Virus record (IMG/VR): IMGVR_UViG_3300042885_001472
DNA from: a virus
Taxonomy: Duplodnaviria > Caudoviricetes
Reading direction: 5' to 3' (one strand)
Length of the DNA: 64,000 bases
The position numbers and the translations under genes are program-made. This document shows positions 19,421 through 55,544 of this stretch, piece after piece. The notes below the pieces were generated by a model, which had not been told where the DNA came from, did not search any database, and saw only the letters and a list, made by a program, of their open reading frames with translations. How positions within the stretch are numbered: position 1 is the stretch's first letter; each line of letters begins with the position of its first letter.

Positions 19421-19510
19421 TGTAGTCAGGACAAGATTCGAACTTGTATGGATAAGCGTACCGCGCCAGCAGTTATCCTCTGTAGCGTCTACCAATTCCG
19501 CCACCTGACT
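19421..19510 (-). tRNA. tRNA-like element: Leu-type acceptor, D and T arms with a non-canonical anticodon region
   Basis: AGTCAGG/CCTGACT acceptor stem; GCGGAATTGGTAGACGC D arm; ACAAG-TTCGAAT-CTTGT T arm; no canonical 5-bp/7-nt anticodon arm. Confidence 0.6.
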
Positions 19511-19517
19511 ATTTTAA

Positions 19518-19639
19518 AAATTAACCTACCGAAATGTAATCTATTCACGCTTGAATTACATCTCCCAATCTCCATAGTGATACTTCGTAACAATCTCACC
19601 CCTTACAGCTTACTACTACTTCAGCGCCTCGGTTAATTT
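19518..19639 (-). ncRNA. Putative structured RNA between two tRNA-like elements
   Basis: Closing stem AAATTAACC/GGTTAATTT and internal ATGTAAT/ATTACAT hairpin; no credible ORF. Confidence 0.35.
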
Positions 19640-19640
19640 A

Positions 19641-19714
19641 GTATTCAGGGTGAGATTCGAACTCACATCTTGCTTTGACTCACAAAGCGTATTCTACCAT
19701 TGAACTAGCTGATT
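19641..19714 (-). tRNA. Degenerate tRNA or pseudo-tRNA (anticodon unassignable)
   Basis: D arm GTTC-AATGGTA-GAAT; perfect T arm GTGAG-TTCGAAT-CTCAC; GCTTTG/CAAAGC stem with a 5-nt loop; two acceptor-stem mismatches. Confidence 0.55.
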
Positions 19715-48583: not shown

Positions 48584-50074
48584 ATGGGTAAAGTAAAAGT
48601 TAAAATAACAGAATCTCAAATGAATTATTTATTTGAGAATAGTAGAATTGATTATTTAAAAAATCAATTTGGTGTAATAAGTAATACGGAATTTGAAGAA
48701 CTTTCAAAAGCTGAAAGAACAAAAGGAAGGGGTAGAAAACCAAAAGACGTAACACCTTCAGATGTTGAAGGTACTGAGACACCAAAAGAAAAGAATTATA
48801 CATTAACTCCAATTAAAACACCAGAAGGTGGGTTAATCGCTTTAATCTTAACGGATGAGAAGGGTAAAAGTAAAGTTAGAATTTCAGAAGAAACTTTTAA
48901 TAATATAGTTAACGCTGATCCAACAAATAATAAAATTTATGTTCAATGGTTATTAAAAATTTTAATTGAGTTCATCAAACATAAAGATTTTGAAGAAGCG
49001 GCCAGATTTGTTGATGAAGATTTACCACAATTAAGTCAAACATTAGTGGTTTTTGATGAAGTCAAAAATCTTAATAAGTTTAAAACTTACGCGGCAAATG
49101 AACCTGGATTACCTAGTAACCCTTCAAATATTTTAAGTTATACTTCAATAACACAACTTTATTTGGCTATTGAACCTTATATTGAAAAATCTGATGCTAG
49201 TGATTTAGAAAAAGCGTTAAATAAATTTATTAAATTAAAGGAAGCTAAAATTGTTTATGAAGATAGTAAATGGTTAGTTTATGAACCATTAACAAGAGAA
49301 GCTAACTGTGCTTTACCAAATCCTGGTTTAGTTAAATTTTGTACTGCTAACCCTGGAAATAGTTACTTTCAAAGATACACCTCAGAAGGTGGTAACTTAG
49401 GTCCTGGTGGAGAAAAATCAAGAATTTACGATATTATAAATAAAAAAGTGTTGACTGGTGAAAGTGGAGAAGTTTATCAATTCCATTTTGAAAGTGAACA
49501 ATGGAAGGACGCTAGTAATGGACCTAATATAAATCTTGTAAATTTTTTTAGTGCTAATCCAGGATTAGGTCAATTTTTTAGTGACATCTTAAAAGACTTA
49601 GCTAAAAGACTTAACGTTAATGACTTAGAAAGAAATAAATATTTAAGAATTTTATCACAAATTGGTGAAATTGATAATATTTTAGAATATTTTGATGTTG
49701 ATTCTGAATCAATAGATCTTAAAAGTTATAGACTTAAAAATTTATCTTCTGATATTAGTAATTTTAAAAATTTATACTCTTTATCACTTAATAATGCTGG
49801 TTTAAAATCATTCCCAAATGAGATAACTAAACTTAGTAATTTAGCGATATTATTTGCACCAAATAATAATATTAAAGAACTACCTAAAGATTTTGGGGAT
49901 TTAAAAGAGTTACACGTACTTAATCTTGAAGGTAACCCACTTAAAGAATTGCCGGAATCTATTTCTAAATTGAATGGTAATTTCTTAAAAATTAAACTTC
50001 CTAAAGAGATGTCTGAGGAGGCTAAAAGTAGAGCCACAAAATTATTATCAAAAACGACAATTACTTGGGTATAA
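48584..50074 (+). CDS. Leader-bearing protein with C-terminal leucine-rich repeats
   Basis: About four LxxLxLxxNxLxxLP repeats (LHVLNLEGNPLKELP); the N-terminal region is paralogous to 40430. Confidence 0.8.
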   Translation: MGKVKVKITESQMNYLFENSRIDYLKNQFGVISNTEFEELSKAERTKGRGRKPKDVTPSDVEGTETPKEKNYTLTPIKTPEGGLIALILTDEKGKSKVRISEETFNNIVNADPTNNKIYVQWLLKILIEFIKHKDFEEAARFVDEDLPQLSQTLVVFDEVKNLNKFKTYAANEPGLPSNPSNILSYTSITQLYLAIEPYIEKSDASDLEKALNKFIKLKEAKIVYEDSKWLVYEPLTREANCALPNPGLVKFCTANPGNSYFQRYTSEGGNLGPGGEKSRIYDIINKKVLTGESGEVYQFHFESEQWKDASNGPNINLVNFFSANPGLGQFFSDILKDLAKRLNVNDLERNKYLRILSQIGEIDNILEYFDVDSESIDLKSYRLKNLSSDISNFKNLYSLSLNNAGLKSFPNEITKLSNLAILFAPNNNIKELPKDFGDLKELHVLNLEGNPLKELPESISKLNGNFLKIKLPKEMSEEAKSRATKLLSKTTITWV

Positions 50075-50162: not shown

Positions 50163-50306
50163 ATGGGTAAAAAAATTAGATTAACTGAATCAGAATTAAT
50201 CAATCTTCTTGAAAGAATCGTAACAGAACATAAAAAAGAAGAAAAGATGAATAAAATTAATGAAAGTAGAAGAGAAAAACTTCAAAATCGTAGAAGATTA
50301 AAATAA
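50163..50306 (+). CDS. 47-aa basic peptide consisting mostly of the shared leader (missed by the ORF track)
   Basis: MGKKIRLTESELINLLERIVTEHKKEEKMNKINESRREKLQNRRRLK*; ATATTTAT at about 50114; terminator follows. Confidence 0.65.
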   Translation: MGKKIRLTESELINLLERIVTEHKKEEKMNKINESRREKLQNRRRLK

Positions 50307-50336
50307 AAAAAGGGGATTTAATCCCCTTTTTTTTTG
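50305..50336. terminator. Bidirectional terminator
   Basis: AAAAAAGGGGAT-TTA-ATCCCCTTTTTTTTT between convergent genes. Confidence 0.85.
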
Positions 50337-51596
50337 TTACTTACCTATTTTTATTACAATCTTATCTTTAACCTTATCAAATGTTATTTTAATAACAGTA
50401 TTTTCTTTATCTTCATTCCTTAAAATCTCTTCTGAAATAGGATCTTCAATAAACTTTTGAATAGCTCTATTTAAAGGTCTAGCCCCAAATTTCTCATCAT
50501 ATCCTTCTTTACCTAAATATTCTTTAACTGAAGAATTAATTTTTAACGTATAACCAATTTCTTTACTACGTTTTTCTAGTTTTTTAAGTTCAATTTCCAC
50601 AATTTTATGAATATCTTCTTGTCTAAGTGAATTAAAGATAATGATATCATCTAACCTATTAATAAACTCTGGCGCGAATTTCTTTTTTAACTCCTTATCA
50701 ATAATTGATTTTTTTTCTTCCTCAATAACCACACTTTTACTTTGTGTTGAGAATCCAATACCAGTACCAAAATCTTCTAAATGTCTAACACCAATATTAG
50801 ATGTCATAATGATCAAACAATTTTTAAAATTAATTTTTCTACCTAAACCATCAGTCATTTGACCATCATCTAACATTTGTAATAAAATGTTAAAGGTATC
50901 TGGATGAGCTTTTTCAATTTCATCAAAAAGGATAACACTATATGGTTTTCTTCTAACCTTTTCAGTTAATTGTCCACCATCTTCATGTCCCACATATCCC
51001 GGAGGGGCTCCGACTAATCTTGATATCGCGTGTTTCTCCATATATTCACTCATATCAATTCTAATTAAAGAATCTTCTGAATCAAACATATATTCAGCCA
51101 ATAATTTCGCTAAATAAGTGTTGTGTGATAAAATACCATTAGTATAATATCTACGATTAGAACCTTCTTTTAATTCAAGGTCATACATTACTTCTTCATA
51201 ACCTAAATTGGTTAATTGTGTAACCATTGAATTTAGAGGTTCACCATTATCATTATATTGTGTTATAATTATATCACCTAATTTTAAATCTTTAACAAAA
51301 ACTTCATCAAAATTAATTGGATTAACTTCATTGTGTTTAAACACAATATGATTATCAGCACATTTAAGCTCTTTTCCATCACTTAATTTAAGATGATATA
51401 CTTCATAGGGTATTGTTTTATGTAAAGCTTCTATGTCAACAAAACCATCATCAGTTAATACTTCGTAATCATTAATTTTGGTTGTTTTAGTAATCTTTTT
51501 TAAAGATTCTAATTCATGTTTATCAAATAATAAAACATTATCTAATTTCTCAAGTCTTTTTTGTATTTCCTCTACCCTACTCATTTTATTTTCCAT
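50337..51596 (-). CDS. clpC: ClpC part 3: IntC-2 (159 aa, 51120-51596) plus the rest of AAA+ D2 (260 aa)
   Basis: CADNH block B and YYTNGILSHN|T terminus; then YLAKLLAE, RIDMSEY, GAPPGYVG, LFDEIEKAH, GIGF (ClpP-docking loop), GARPL. Own TATATTTG promoter at 51609-51616. Confidence 0.93.
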   Translation of the reverse strand: MENKMSRVEEIQKRLEKLDNVLLFDKHELESLKKITKTTKINDYEVLTDDGFVDIEALHKTIPYEVYHLKLSDGKELKCADNHIVFKHNEVNPINFDEVFVKDLKLGDIIITQYNDNGEPLNSMVTQLTNLGYEEVMYDLELKEGSNRRYYTNGILSHNTYLAKLLAEYMFDSEDSLIRIDMSEYMEKHAISRLVGAPPGYVGHEDGGQLTEKVRRKPYSVILFDEIEKAHPDTFNILLQMLDDGQMTDGLGRKINFKNCLIIMTSNIGVRHLEDFGTGIGFSTQSKSVVIEEEKKSIIDKELKKKFAPEFINRLDDIIIFNSLRQEDIHKIVEIELKKLEKRSKEIGYTLKINSSVKEYLGKEGYDEKFGARPLNRAIQKFIEDPISEEILRNEDKENTVIKITFDKVKDKIVIKIGK

Positions 51597-51616
51597 ATTT
51601 TATTTTTACAAATATA

Positions 51617-53098
51617 CTATTTTTCATTTAGAAAAACAATGCATTTATTTATTATTTCTTGTTTATTATTTTTATAATCATATTCACTAATATGTAATAC
51701 TTGATAACCAGATTCTAATATCATTTTATCTCTTTTTTCTTCTCTTAATGAATTTTCTGGTGTTGACCTATGATAGTAAGTACCATCAAACTCAATAATT
51801 TTTCCCTTAACTAAATCAATAAAATCTGGTAATATTACACCATTTAACAATGATAATCGATATTCATTATTTTTACCACTATCATCAATGTCACCTTTAT
51901 TAAATGTCGCAAAGAATATATTATCGTTTTTAATACTTGGTTCTGTTTCTAATATACCCCAAAATAACTGTTGTGATATTTTACTAAAATTAGTTCTTTT
52001 ATAATTAGTTAACCACTTATTTTGTCTTTCATTAAATCTTTTTAATCCGTCTTTTTCACCATATTTCTGGAGACAAATTTCTAAACTAAATGTTGTTTGT
52101 CTTTCAGTTACTTTTTCTTTAGATTGTTGATACGTGAATCCTCTATTAACCCAATAACTTATATTAGATGGTAATAACCTACTTTCATAATCAATATGTT
52201 TTAAAGCATTTAATTGATTGTTTACTACCATAATTTTAGCATCTTCTTCAGAGTATCCTTTATCCACCCAAAACTTAACCTGGGATGGTGTTTGACATAT
52301 TTTATTAATCTCTTCTTCAGAATAACCCAATTTTTGTAAATTATCTTTAGAAACTACAAACCTATCTTTAACCATCATAGAATTTTTACTTTGTATTTTT
52401 GAAATATTACTTTTAGCTTCTTCTTCAGAGTAACCTTTACTAACCCAACTATCAACACATAATCTATTAGACTTGACTATAACATCACTCAATTCTTTTA
52501 GTTTAACTTCAGCTATGTCTTTAGGTAGATACGCATTATATAAATTAGATTTAGAATATCCTTTAGTTTCACAAAATTTATTTGAACACCCAGTAATTTT
52601 ATAATAAAATAAATCTGATATATTTTTTATATTCTTTTTAGTTAATATTAAGTCTTCACCACAAATATTACATTTTGGGCGTCTGTTAGATATAAATTCA
52701 CCACCTTTAAATATTATTTTAATACTTTCATTAAATTCAATTTTATTTTTTTCATTAAGTTTGGTTTTTACACCAATATTAGACCTTTCTTTAGTTATGT
52801 TTGAAATCTTGTTTTTACCATATTCTTTAGACCAACCGCGTTCTAACCAAAAATCAAGTGTTAATAGATTAGATTTTTTAAACCCAAACTTACTCGGTAA
52901 CCATCTATTAAATCTAACCCATTTTATAAGACCATCTTGTGTCAACATATCTTGATAAATTAAATTTATTTTTTCAGTTATTAATTGACTTTCAAAATTA
53001 ATTTTATTGTTAATATTGACCAAATATTCTGTGAACTCATTAGATGTTTTAAAAACTTCTTTAACTTCTTGCCTTTTTCTATCTTTTAAAAATTGCAT
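51617..53098 (-). mobile_element. Free-standing putative homing endonuclease (Vsr/DUF559-like PD-(D/E)XK) between the IntN-2 and IntC-2 genes
   Basis: C-terminal PDF..IIEFDGTYYH..RD..GYQVLHISEYD; five W..[KR]G[YWF]S.E repeats; CxxC..CxxxxC motif; GATATTTAT upstream. Confidence 0.75.
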
Positions 53099-53183
53099 AT
53101 TTATTATGTTTAATAATAAATATCACGAAGTTTTGAAAAAGACCTATTTGTTGGAAAATATTTTTAGGGTGAAGTGGGATGAG

Positions 53184-54662
53184 TTAGTGTTTTATCCTAT
53201 CTATTAATTCATTAATATCAATTTTTTCAACTAAATTAGTACTTTTATTTCTTATAACTATCTGAGTATGAGATGTAAAACATTTACCAACTCCTGTTGG
53301 ACCAAGGAAGATGAAGCTTCCTATAGGCCTTTTTGGGTTCTTAATACCCACCCTATTCCTTCTAAGAGCTTTCGCAATTTTCTCTACCGCTTCGTTTTGA
53401 CCGATAACTTTATCACCCAATTCTTTTCCCATATCTAAAAGTCTTAACCCCTCTTTAGTTGAAACTTTATTAAGTGGGATACCGGTCATCATAGAAACAA
53501 CTTCCGTTATTGATGATTCATCAACAAGACTTCTTTTATGGTTTAATTGTACCTCCCATAATTTTTTAGTTTTTTCTAAATCTTCATTTAGGATTCTTTC
53601 CTGATCTCTCAGTAAAGCGGCCTTTTCAAATTCTTGTGTCTTAACAACTGTGAGTTTTTTCTCCTTTAATTCAACAAGTTTCTTTTCTAATTCAACAATT
53701 TCTTTTGGTGGTTTAACAACAACTTGAGCTCTAGCTCCAGCTTCATCCAAAATATCAATCGCTTTATCTGGGAATTCTCGATCTGTAATATACCTTTCAG
53801 CTAACTTAACACATTCTTCAATAGCTTCTTTAGAATACTCAACTTTATGGTAATCTTCATACTTACCCTTAATATTATTTAAAATTGTTATAGTATCTTC
53901 TGGGGATGTTGGGTTAACCATAACTTGTTGAAATCTTCTAGTTAAAGCCCCATCTTTTTCAATGTTCTCTCTAAATTCATCTAATGTAGTCGCCCCAATA
54001 ATTTGGAGATCTCCTCTAGCCATCGCTGGTTTAAAAATATTTGACGCGTCAAGTGATCCGGAACTATTTCCAGCTCCAACAATTGTATGTAATTCATCAA
54101 TGAATAAAATTACATCTCTATTACCAACTAATTCGTCAAGAATACTTTTCATTCGTTCTTCAAACTGACCACGATATTTTGTACCGGCCACTAATGAAGA
54201 AAGATCTAAAGAAACAATTCTTTTACCTATTAATGTTCTTGGGGCTTTACCCTCTTTAATTTTTAACGCTAAACCCTCAATAATTGATGTATTGTGTGAT
54301 AAAATACCATTAGTGTAGTAACGTCTATTTGAATTTTCTGTTAATTCAAAGTCATACATAACTTCTTCATAACGTAAATCATTGATTTCAGAAATAACGC
54401 TAACAATAATTTGACCATTACCATCATCGGTTAAAATTTCATCACCAATATTTAAATCCTTAACAAAAACTTCCACAAAATCTTTATAGAAAACAATATG
54501 GTTATCAGCACATTTTAATTCTTTACCATCAGATAATTTAAGATGATACACTTGATATGGAATTGTTTTATGTAACTTTTCCAATTTTTTAAACCCATTA
54601 TCAGTTAAGATACTGAAGTTACTCATATCAAATGATTTTGTAAATTTTTTTAATTCTTTCAT
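53184..54662 (-). CDS. clpC: ClpC part 2: IntC-1 (124 aa, 54291-54662), rest of D1, UVR/M domain, D2 Walker A (336 aa), then IntN-2 (32 aa, 53187-53282)
   Basis: LSHN|TSIIEGLA, LVAGTKYRGQFEER, LFIDELH, IGATT, PDKAIDILDEAG, UVR helix, FIFLGPTGVGK|CFTSHTQIVIR. Confidence 0.93.
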   Translation of the reverse strand: MKELKKFTKSFDMSNFSILTDNGFKKLEKLHKTIPYQVYHLKLSDGKELKCADNHIVFYKDFVEVFVKDLNIGDEILTDDGNGQIIVSVISEINDLRYEEVMYDFELTENSNRRYYTNGILSHNTSIIEGLALKIKEGKAPRTLIGKRIVSLDLSSLVAGTKYRGQFEERMKSILDELVGNRDVILFIDELHTIVGAGNSSGSLDASNIFKPAMARGDLQIIGATTLDEFRENIEKDGALTRRFQQVMVNPTSPEDTITILNNIKGKYEDYHKVEYSKEAIEECVKLAERYITDREFPDKAIDILDEAGARAQVVVKPPKEIVELEKKLVELKEKKLTVVKTQEFEKAALLRDQERILNEDLEKTKKLWEVQLNHKRSLVDESSITEVVSMMTGIPLNKVSTKEGLRLLDMGKELGDKVIGQNEAVEKIAKALRRNRVGIKNPKRPIGSFIFLGPTGVGKCFTSHTQIVIRNKSTNLVEKIDINELIDRIKH

Positions 54663-54719
54663 ATATTTTATTTTTTAGATTCGTTTTTTCCCTTTTATTA
54701 TAAATGGTAACGTATTTAA

Positions 54720-55544
54720 TTAGGGATTAGATAATGTTTTCAATAATTCTTCAATAGTAGTTTTTATCACTTCACCTGTTAAATCATTTCTCATAACAAC
54801 CTCAGTATCAGAACAAATACACTTACCAACACCCGGGTCGCCTATCAAAACGGGATTATTTTTCTTACGTCTACTCAAAATTTGAGCAACTCTTTGAATC
54901 TCATCATCTCTACCAATAACTGGATCAATTTTACCTTCTTCAGCTGATACCGTAATATCTTTAGAAAAATTATCTAAAATTGGTGTTTTACTACTAGTTT
55001 TAGTGTACTTCTTTTTTTCTGGTTCAATTGGACTACTTTCTTGTTCGTCACCTTCATAACTCGCCATAATACTTAATTCTTTAATTTTTTGTTTAAAACT
55101 ATTATAATCAACCTCAAAATCATTTAATAAAGAAGCTATGTCAGATTTAGAATTTAACATAGACAAAATCAAATGATTTAAATCAATAAACTCTGACTTT
55201 AGACTTACCGCCTCATTATCTGAATTATTAATTATTTCTGTACTATCCTTATTTAGGGGTAATATGTTATACTTTTTTTGTACTCTAGGTACGATATTTT
55301 GTTGACAATTAAATTGTAACTTAACTATCAATTTTTTAGTATCAACATTCATACTCACTAATGTTTTAACCCCCATATTATTATTATCTCTAAGTATTGA
55401 TAATAAGATATGTTCAGGTCTCACATTCACATCATTAAATTCTTTCGCGGTATCAAACGAAGAGTTCATAATTTGTTTCACTTTAGGTATTACTCTTTTC
55501 ATATTGATTAAGTTTAGTATTTTTTTTCTTAAAAGTCCAATCAT
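54720..55544 (-). CDS. clpC: ClpC part 1: Clp N-terminal repeats, D1 Walker A, then IntN-1 (33 aa, 54723-54821)
   Basis: [47 protein letters not shown]|[11 protein letters not shown]. Confidence 0.93.

Follow-up and report, generated by a model that had tools for sequence, protein, structure and literature searches.

A phage ClpC gene divided among three open reading frames

The 64,000-nucleotide stretch of viral DNA analysed here (IMG/VR record IMGVR_UViG_3300042885_001472, hereafter the window) belongs to a freshwater-lake jumbo phage whose largest contig is about 295 kb, and it contains a gene for the chaperone ClpC whose coding sequence is interrupted twice by what appear to be split inteins. 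Translation of the window showed four open reading frames (ORFs), all running in one direction on the minus strand within 50337-55544 (Table 1). Three of them share the ClpC sequence: ORF A encodes the first extein (E1) and an N-terminal intein half (IntN1), ORF B the matching C-terminal half (IntC1), the second extein (E2) and IntN2, and ORF C encodes IntC2 and the third extein (E3), while the fourth is a free-standing gene for a putative endonuclease. Both cuts fall after the Walker A lysine (GVGK/T, where the slash marks the cut), one in each of the two ATPase modules (D1 and D2). E2 opens with T-SIIEG... directly after the ILSHN of IntC1, and E3 opens with T-YLAKLL... directly after the ILSHN of IntC2, so that the three exteins add up to 241+336+260 = 837 amino acids (aa), compared with 838 aa in L013, an intein-free homologue on a related phage contig.

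A previous reading of this DNA from the sequence only had proposed this arrangement, and almost all of its anatomy was recovered, including the ORFs and junctions (GDPGVGK/C and GPTGVGK/C, IntN of 33 and 32 aa, IntC of 124 and 159 aa, HN/T ends), the first gap of 57 nucleotides (nt) with two in-frame TAA codons, the Thr at position +1 of both inteins (SHN/T at IntC1 and IntC2) and a joined ClpC of about 837 aa. Its description of an IntC opening the next ORF applies after IntN1 but not after IntN2, where the 493-aa endonuclease ORF comes next. This second gap measures 1,587 nt, of which 85 nt precede the endonuclease ORF and 20 nt separate it from ORF C.

The pieces matched the Pfam families Clp_N, AAA, AAA_lid_9, UVR, AAA_2 and ClpB_D2-small, with E2 alone matching AAA_lid_9 (E 1e-30), UVR and AAA, as well as the PHROG family phrog_4871 (ATP-dependent protease). 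L013 aligns end to end with Staphylococcus aureus ClpC (6EM8, E 1.5e-243), and B. subtilis ClpC was also matched over its full length. These domains and alignments bear out the order N domain, D1, UVR, D2 proposed from the sequence, and the IGF loop noted there can be read as a GIGF motif in the window's E3, which the L013 alignment places at the position of the ClpC GFG loop. By sequence, then, the host protein is identified as a true ClpC-type class I AAA+ unfoldase. ClpP is encoded in 3 of 4 related near-complete jumbo phage genomes (318-368 kb; E about 1e-58), which would give those phages both halves of a ClpCP machine, and since most of these relatives encode ClpP, the spliced ClpC probably works with a phage ClpP.

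The four ORFs may form one transcription unit, because no convincing terminator lies between the pieces: a bidirectional terminator-like hairpin immediately follows ORF C, and the sole other match is a weak 5-bp stem at 53287-53300, within coding sequence. A promoter scan was uninformative, with 41 sites found against a chance expectation of 39.8. ORF A could start at either of two in-frame ATG codons spaced by 14 codons (55502-55544), and a promoter-like site with 10/12 matches overlaps the first. The start of ORF A is uncertain because homologues align from about residue 16, and the true start of E1 may be the second ATG, at 55502.

Table 1. Features of the interrupted ClpC locus, by position in the window, and features of related loci and genomes.
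Feature	Position or locus	Strand	Description
ORF A	54720-55544	-	274 aa; E1 (241 aa, to GDPGVGK), IntN1 (33 aa), stop
ORF B	53184-54662	-	492 aa; IntC1 (124 aa), E2 (336 aa), IntN2 (32 aa), stop
ORF C	50337-51596	-	IntC2 (159 aa, ...ILSHN/T), E3 (260 aa)
Extein 1	54822..55544	-	241 aa; ClpC N-domain and start of D1, ends GDPGVGK; Clp_N E 2e-15
IntN1	54723..54821	-	33 aa; Cys1 and block A only (CICSDTEVV...SNP); stop codon 54720-54722
Gap 1	54663..54719	-	57 nt; non-coding, in frame, two TAA codons, no endonuclease gene
IntC1	54291..54662	-	124 aa; own Met; block B CADNH, F YDFEL, G SHN; then Thr+1
Extein 2	53283..54290	-	336 aa; rest of D1, lid, UVR/M-domain, start of D2; ends GPTGVGK
IntN2	53187..53282	-	32 aa; CFTSHTQIVIRNK..., begins CFTSHT, ends IKH; stop codon 53184-53186
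Endonuclease gene	51617..53098	-	493 aa; free-standing, between the halves of intein 2; Vsr-like C-terminal nuclease (probable)
IntC2	51120..51596	-	159 aa; own Met; N-terminal extension; blocks B, F, G (SHN); then Thr+1
Extein 3	50340..51119	-	260 aa; rest of D2; AAA_2 E 2e-58, ClpB_D2-small E 6e-24; stop codon 50337-50339
Terminator-like hairpin	50305..50333	.	bidirectional; immediately downstream of ORF C
Site 1 only	L002, L004		same intein, without endonuclease gene
Site 1 only	L003, L008		same intein, with endonuclease gene
Site 2 only	L010, L015, L023, L027, L034, L059, L063		with endonuclease gene
Site 2 only	L071		without endonuclease gene
Site 2, contiguous	L009 (7009-7527)		cis form, fused at the natural split point
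Both sites	L001		contig stops after IntN2
Site 2 and another D1 P-loop element	L007, L012		site-2 split intein with site b split intein (L007) or Ala1 cis-intein (L012)
Second intein family, split	L005, L006, L007, L038, L040, L047-L049, L051, L053, L054, L066, L068		D1 P-loop
Second intein family, contiguous	L061		D1 P-loop
Third D1 element	L011, L012, L014, L045		about 1,092 nt between E1 and E2
ClpP gene	G001:C1:59649-60173		related jumbo phage
ClpP gene	G003:C1:228452-228976		related jumbo phage
ClpP gene	G004:C1:222727-223254		related jumbo phage

Both interruptions have the anatomy of atypically split inteins

Sequence comparison of IntC1 with the PDB retrieved the C-fragment of Cat, an engineered consensus atypical split intein (6dsl_B, E 8.9e-9), and VidaL (6vgv, E 6.6e-4), followed by weaker matches to the RadA and gp41-1 inteins; IntN1 alone gave no meaningful match to PDB sequences. 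At both sites the split point lies after block A, and for this reason the IntN holds only Cys1 and block A and the IntC holds blocks B (CADNH), F (YDFEL or YDLEL) and G (SHN), so that blocks A, B, F and G are intact, each on the expected half. The halves reside on separate ORFs, with a stop codon, a spacer and an own start codon, and relatives share this layout.

To obtain a fold, IntN1, gap 1 and IntC1 were modelled with AlphaFold2 as one read-through chain in which the TAA codons were written as Gly. Without an alignment the chain did not fold (mean predicted local distance difference test score, pLDDT, 39.6), but when 63 rows of homologues, taken from read-through and contiguous sequences (alignment A2), were supplied, a single HINT domain was predicted (pLDDT 86.8, predicted template modelling score 0.80) with IntN1 at 92-96 pLDDT and disorder confined to the artificial linker. 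Foldseek ranks VidaL first among the PDB matches of this model (E 1.7e-8), and the top 39 consist entirely of inteins or intein-like HINT domains, with the RadA intein among the best; identity is 31% to the Cat C-fragment and 21% to VidaL. In the A2 alignment the block B His (H108), the block F Asp (D157) and S175, H176 and N177 are invariant and T178, the Thr+1, is nearly so, and Cys1 is present in 33 of the 33 IntN sequences compared.

The IntN lengths of 33 and 32 aa fall under the threshold of about 40 aa or less that marks the atypical class, to which block B in the IntC and the homology to Cat and VidaL also point. Sequence and model together thus support two naturally, atypically split inteins, which is how the short-IntN/long-IntC pattern had initially been read, and that reading gains from the HINT model and from the recurrence of the pattern in independent phage contigs. 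The suggested likeness of block B to that of VidaL is also seen (CADNH here, CAFNH in VidaL).

The breaks are present in independent assemblies

All or part of the stretch is present in 24 public runs of freshwater or lake metagenomes, which date from 2016-2024 and come from 24 studies, and 21 of the 24 runs contain at least half of its sampled words. Independently assembled contigs from three further lake metagenomes (X9, X10 and X11), none of them the likely source of the window, extend across the two gaps, the two IntN stops and either end of the endonuclease gene, and they match the window over both breaks without any mismatch or indel. Because these contigs agree exactly over both breaks, the split structure is not an assembly error. 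It had been pointed out beforehand that such an error, hiding contiguous cis-inteins, would undo the interpretation; the independent assemblies show the same breaks, base for base.

Contigs of relatives in the same runs diverge from the window at, or within about 35 nt of, the boundaries of intein 2 (53283; 51086-51089) and continue into different sequence, and one contig from metagenome X2 joins both boundaries with 33 unmatched letters between them. Since this contig bridges the intein 2 boundaries, intein-free D2 alleles probably co-occur in these lakes, where they could be homing targets. In the GenBank phage collection the stretch has no close match, and what it matches there are distant ClpC genes without inteins, from uncultured huge phages.

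Related loci form an allele series that includes other three-piece genes

A scan of IMG/VR with ORF B retrieved 591 relatives, and the best 80 loci were dissected with tblastn and reading of the junctions. ClpC is uninterrupted in 49 of these 80. The same two insertion sites, which the sequence-only reading had suggested looking for in phage ClpC homologues, are both occupied in related IMG/VR loci, singly or together and with or without an endonuclease gene (Table 1). In L009 the site-2 intein is contiguous, and this cis form may be ancestral or may have arisen by re-fusion after loss of the endonuclease gene. Homologues of IntN1 were found in L001-L004, L008, L081, L083 and L085.

When 5.8 billion proteins were searched with IntC1, 1,060 matches were obtained, and the best 120 clusters are all ClpC pieces: 79 correspond to IntC-E3, 19 to IntC1-E2-E3 (about 21 if unclassified rows are counted) and 13 to IntC1-E2-IntN2 middle pieces, two of these 13 coming from the window itself. 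Three of the middle-piece loci (L081, L083/84 and L085/86) turned out to be complete three-piece genes, independent of the window and with all junction residues intact. Both gaps of L083/84 hold an endonuclease gene; L085/86 lacks one in gap 1 and has a 24-residue remnant in gap 2 (L085:5300-6650); and gap 2 of L081 (6480-8500) contains, besides a C-terminal endonuclease remnant, several other genes, one for a DNA methylase. KTSC and thymidylate synthase neighbours are common to these three loci and the window. Because three further loci have intact junctions, we regard the three-piece ClpC, as far as sequence can tell, as a recurrent and maintained architecture, in which the endonuclease gene appears to follow the expected gain-and-decay cycle while the intein halves persist.

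Separately, the thymidylate synthase gene beside ClpC in L083 (1-1582) and L084 carries a contiguous intein of its own, with LAGLIDADG-type matches in precomputed Pfam annotation.

Selection and descent of the two inteins

Compared with relatives, the approximate ratio of nonsynonymous to synonymous substitution rates (dN/dS) was 0.07-0.33 for the IntC halves and 0.15-0.29 for the exteins, and the intein halves are under purifying selection. Between phages, amino acid identity is 58-76% for the inteins (72-76% at site 2) versus 58-65% for the exteins, and inteins more similar than the exteins around them fit horizontal spread.

In a tree of 116 IntC sequences, rooted only at its midpoint, 77 of 81 site-2 inteins fall in one clade (support 99) nested within the site-1 diversity, and the tree needs 3-4 changes of site, compared with about 30 when labels are shuffled. 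Within the window, IntC1 and IntC2 share 64% identity as proteins and 72% as DNA, and synonymous differences occur within identical peptide blocks; identity between IntN1 and IntN2 is 37.5%. Recent duplication of the window's inteins, or gene conversion between them, was considered and ruled out by the 72% DNA identity, the synonymous differences and the separate tree lineages. Because of this divergence and of their separate lineages, the two inteins appear to be old paralogues belonging to site-specific lineages, and they probably arose when the cassette jumped between two similar P-loop sites.

Several residues follow the insertion site on both halves. At IntN position 13, all 9 site-1 sequences have Asp and all 24 site-2 sequences have Lys. 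In the IntC, site-1 and site-2 inteins respectively carry Asp and Lys at position 12, Lys and Asp at position 26, Ser and Glu at position 17, and Phe and Leu at position 105. Site-2 IntC sequences additionally carry an N-terminal extension specific to that site, which is 35 aa long in the window and comprises about 28 aa of conserved columns over the clade. Fixed on the IntN as well as the IntC, the reciprocal charge differences may hold the two pairs orthogonal, and together with the separate lineages and the extension they suggest selection for pair specificity.

A probable homing endonuclease lies within intein 2

In the 493-aa ORF, a motif like W..KGYSEEEAK is repeated four or five times; these repeats and a Cys-rich stretch (CNICGEDL...CSNKFC) precede a nuclease core. 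The repeats and the Cys-rich stretch match no Pfam or PHROG family and are probably modular DNA-binding units. As a single sequence the protein had no PDB or PHROG match; a profile of its family (alignment A3) gave as best PDB match the catalytic domain of I-Bth0305I (3r3p, E 0.0086, weak), followed by weaker matches to a DUF559 endonuclease-like protein and Vsr (E about 0.6), and the Pfam families MTES_1575 and DUF559 matched the ORF below their curated cut-offs. The conserved core ILPDF...IIEFDG.YYH (IIEFDGTYYH in the window) resembles Vsr, and by this motif the protein is a probable member of the Vsr-like homing endonucleases. Homologues occupy the same position in many related loci, and dN/dS values of 0.28-0.35 denote purifying selection. 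At site 2 the free-standing endonuclease gene lies between the intein halves on the same strand, as in described fractured genes, and at site 1 no endonuclease gene is present.

Proposed mechanism and alternative explanations

The explanation that we favour, with a probability of about 85%, is that this phage makes its ClpC as three polypeptides joined through two atypical split inteins of one selfish family. E1-IntN1, IntC1-E2-IntN2 and IntC2-E3 would be produced separately, each IntN would dock with its own IntC and complete a HINT domain, and class-1 splicing would then proceed through a thioester at Cys1, transfer to Thr+1, cyclisation of the terminal Asn and an O-to-N shift. The product would be an 837-aa ClpC with both GVGKT loops restored, and neither ATPase module should bind ATP normally until its own splice is done. 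The Vsr-like endonuclease would act as the homing engine, presumably cutting the intein-free alleles that co-occur in the same lakes. Intein 1 would have lost its endonuclease gene, and would persist without it because ClpC needs the intein removed at the protein level. Anatomy, predicted fold, selection and recurrence are the grounds on which we infer this mechanism with high confidence.

Several points weigh against it. Splicing with Thr at +1 and splicing among three partners have conservation as their sole basis; dS is saturated (often above 1), which makes the dN/dS values rough, and those of the IntN halves, of only about 30 codons, are noisy, one pair reaching 1.4. None of the 24 listed runs is recorded as RNA, and the endonuclease assignment relies on weak scores (Pfam matches below cut-off, a PDB profile match at E 0.0086). 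Finally, the intein cores are near-identical and the flanking GVGK/T residues identical, so that mis-pairing of the inteins is conceivable.

That the pieces assemble non-covalently, with the intein halves serving only as high-affinity docking domains (as reported for a fragmented phage NrdA, PMC3045599), would agree with the prediction of the halves as one compact domain, which makes their association plausible with or without chemistry. The residues that the chemistry requires (Cys1, His of block B, Asp of block F, the terminal His-Asn and Thr+1) are, however, all conserved over the sequences compared, and a HINT domain that stayed in each P-loop between its Lys and Thr would probably prevent both rings from binding nucleotide; we consider this explanation very improbable. 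Even a little less credit is due to the idea that ClpC is a decaying gene, disrupted by mobile elements and non-functional, with its pieces drifting. The endonuclease gene is indeed gone at site 1, and only remnants of it persist in L081 and L085, but no extein or intein half contains a frameshift or internal stop, dN/dS lies far below 1 for the exteins and the IntC halves, divergent phages whose exteins are 58-65% identical retain the three-piece layout, and the sequence is identical across samples of 2016 to 2024. Close to refuted is an assembly or sequencing artefact concealing contiguous cis-inteins or an unbroken gene. It is true that the window was assembled from a metagenome and that some relatives are contiguous (L009, L061); nevertheless, the X9-X11 assemblies agree base for base at both gaps, gap 1 holds two stop codons and gap 2 a whole conserved gene, and at the corresponding places relatives have stop codons, changes of frame and separate starts.

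Trans-splicing into one ClpC could also be accompanied by other products, if cross-reaction between the inteins yielded a functional E1-E3 protein (a single-ring ATPase) or a cyclised E2. The identical junction residues (GVGK/T) and the 64% identity of the IntC cores, with long identical blocks, speak for such combinatorial splicing, as does the middle piece, whose IntC-X-IntN order is the laboratory layout for cyclisation. Against it stand the 37.5% identity of IntN1 and IntN2, the largely separate site lineages, the fixed reciprocal charge swaps on both halves and the site-2 IntC extension of about 28-35 aa, and it seems to us highly unlikely. A further proposal, which extends the splicing mechanism that we prefer, takes the two split inteins as a natural orthogonal pair, kept apart by the charge swaps and the helical extension of site 2, whose ordered or conditional double trans-splicing would gate the time in infection at which the phage ClpCP protease is switched on, or else allows limited cross-splicing to a single-ring ATPase; this we put forward as speculation, and as it stands a rather unlikely one.

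Relation to known systems

The inteins share with Cat (6DSL), AceL-TerL, GOS-TerL and VidaL (6VGV) the short IntN made of block A, the long IntC with blocks B, F and G, and sequence homology, and VidaL, the best structural match, has a block B that likewise lacks the usual Thr. They differ from the Cat/AceL-TerL/VidaL class in their ClpC host, in the two paralogous copies per gene, in the combination of Cys1 with Thr+1 and in the extension of the site-2 IntC.

The locus also resembles the fractured genes described by Dassa et al. 2009 (PMC2677866), in which an extein-IntN piece, a short spacer, a free-standing gene for a Vsr-like endonuclease and an IntC-extein piece lie on one strand in a phage or metagenomic setting; their gp41-7 locus has no endonuclease, as is the case at site 1 here. 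The hosts in that work (gp41 helicase, IMPDH, DnaE, NrdA, NrdJ, DNA ligase and terminase) are each fractured in two, whereas ClpC is cut in three, and its text makes no mention of Clp, ATPase, P-loop or Walker. Insertion at the Walker A Lys/Thr point is shared with the mycobacteriophage TerL1-a and Pyrococcus RadA inteins (PMC5050341, PMC4760082; 4E2T/4E2U); TerL1-a also has Thr as its +1 residue, and P-loop insertions are common among inteins (PMC5050341, PMC4760082). Those, however, are solitary inteins of ATPases other than ClpC, and in the solved structure the RadA intein forms a single contiguous chain. I-Bth0305I (PMC3239194; 3R3P), the best profile match of the endonuclease, has a motif similar to the Vsr core in common with it (ILPDF...EFDG.YYH), but the 493-aa protein is far larger, with N-terminal repeat modules and a Cys-rich stretch, and the scores are weak.

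Of Clp proteins, surveys of intein hosts mention a chloroplast ClpP intein only, and Clp ATPases are absent from their top-host lists (PMC5050341, PMC4760082). We found no report of a Clp ATPase as intein host or of a natural double split in the literature searched, which agrees with the impression in the sequence-only reading; subscription journals lay mostly outside that literature, and the absence is no proof of novelty. A 2025 paper on freshwater "moraphages" of 200-307 kb reports a widely shared ClpA-like gene (24 counts in its table) and never mentions inteins. The element belongs to a known class; what seems new is that its host is ClpC, that paralogous inteins give a natural three-piece design and that so large a family had gone unannotated.

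If our explanation is true, this ClpC would be a natural protein requiring two trans-splicing reactions among three polypeptides, hitherto an engineering trick (tandem trans-splicing), and a chaperone/protease motor would join the intein hosts, which are mostly replication and packaging enzymes. It would also provide a related pair of inteins, perhaps already orthogonal by evolution, with Thr at +1 and IntN of 32-33 aa within the reach of peptide synthesis. More than 1,000 unannotated metagenomic proteins, mostly labelled hypothetical or ClpC fragments, can now be read as the pieces of one gene, and the alleles, which are empty, contiguous, split (with an endonuclease or with a decayed one) or split twice, make up a clear natural record of how fractured genes originate and persist.

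The wider intein family and other elements at the locus

The same short-IntN/long-IntC intein, always with SHN/T, occurs in other P-loop ATPase genes on contigs of metagenome-assembled genomes (MAGs), whose hosts, judged by eye from the exteins, are terminase-like, clamp-loader-like, DnaB-like, FtsH-like and SbcC/Rad50-like; TerL-like hosts lie on MAG contigs L097 and L099. Among representative bacterial and archaeal genomes the family was found on MAG or metagenome-derived contigs only, and in none from a cultured isolate. In L089 (G001:C1:79939-83307), from a related 362-kb phage, an SbcC/Rad50-like C-terminal piece opens with an IntC ending SHN/TT and is preceded by a 338-aa homologue of the endonuclease. 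Because it is found at K/T in many phage ATPase P-loops, the family looks like a specialist of this classic site.

Other elements interrupt the D1 P-loop, which in this phage ClpC can be described, from the loci compared, as an intein hot spot. A second, distant intein family (about 30% identity, IntN of 24 aa) sits three residues upstream (GEPG/CGK or GEPG/TGK) with Cys or Thr at +1, and in L007 it is combined with the site-2 split intein, giving a three-piece ClpC built from two different intein families. A third element, at the D1 K/T site itself, is a contiguous intein of 364 aa that starts with Ala (AQPLDAK...) and ends VTHN/T; it is big enough for an endonuclease domain, and L012 pairs it with the site-2 split intein.

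Next to the ClpC operon and converging on it, a 496-aa ORF at 48584-50074 of the plus strand has C-terminal leucine-rich repeats and a weak match to phrog_6688, and a leucine-rich repeat gene resembling it flanks the ClpC locus in L083. Elsewhere in the window, two tRNA genes, for Ile (GAT) and Leu (GAG), lie at 19422-19714 on the minus strand.

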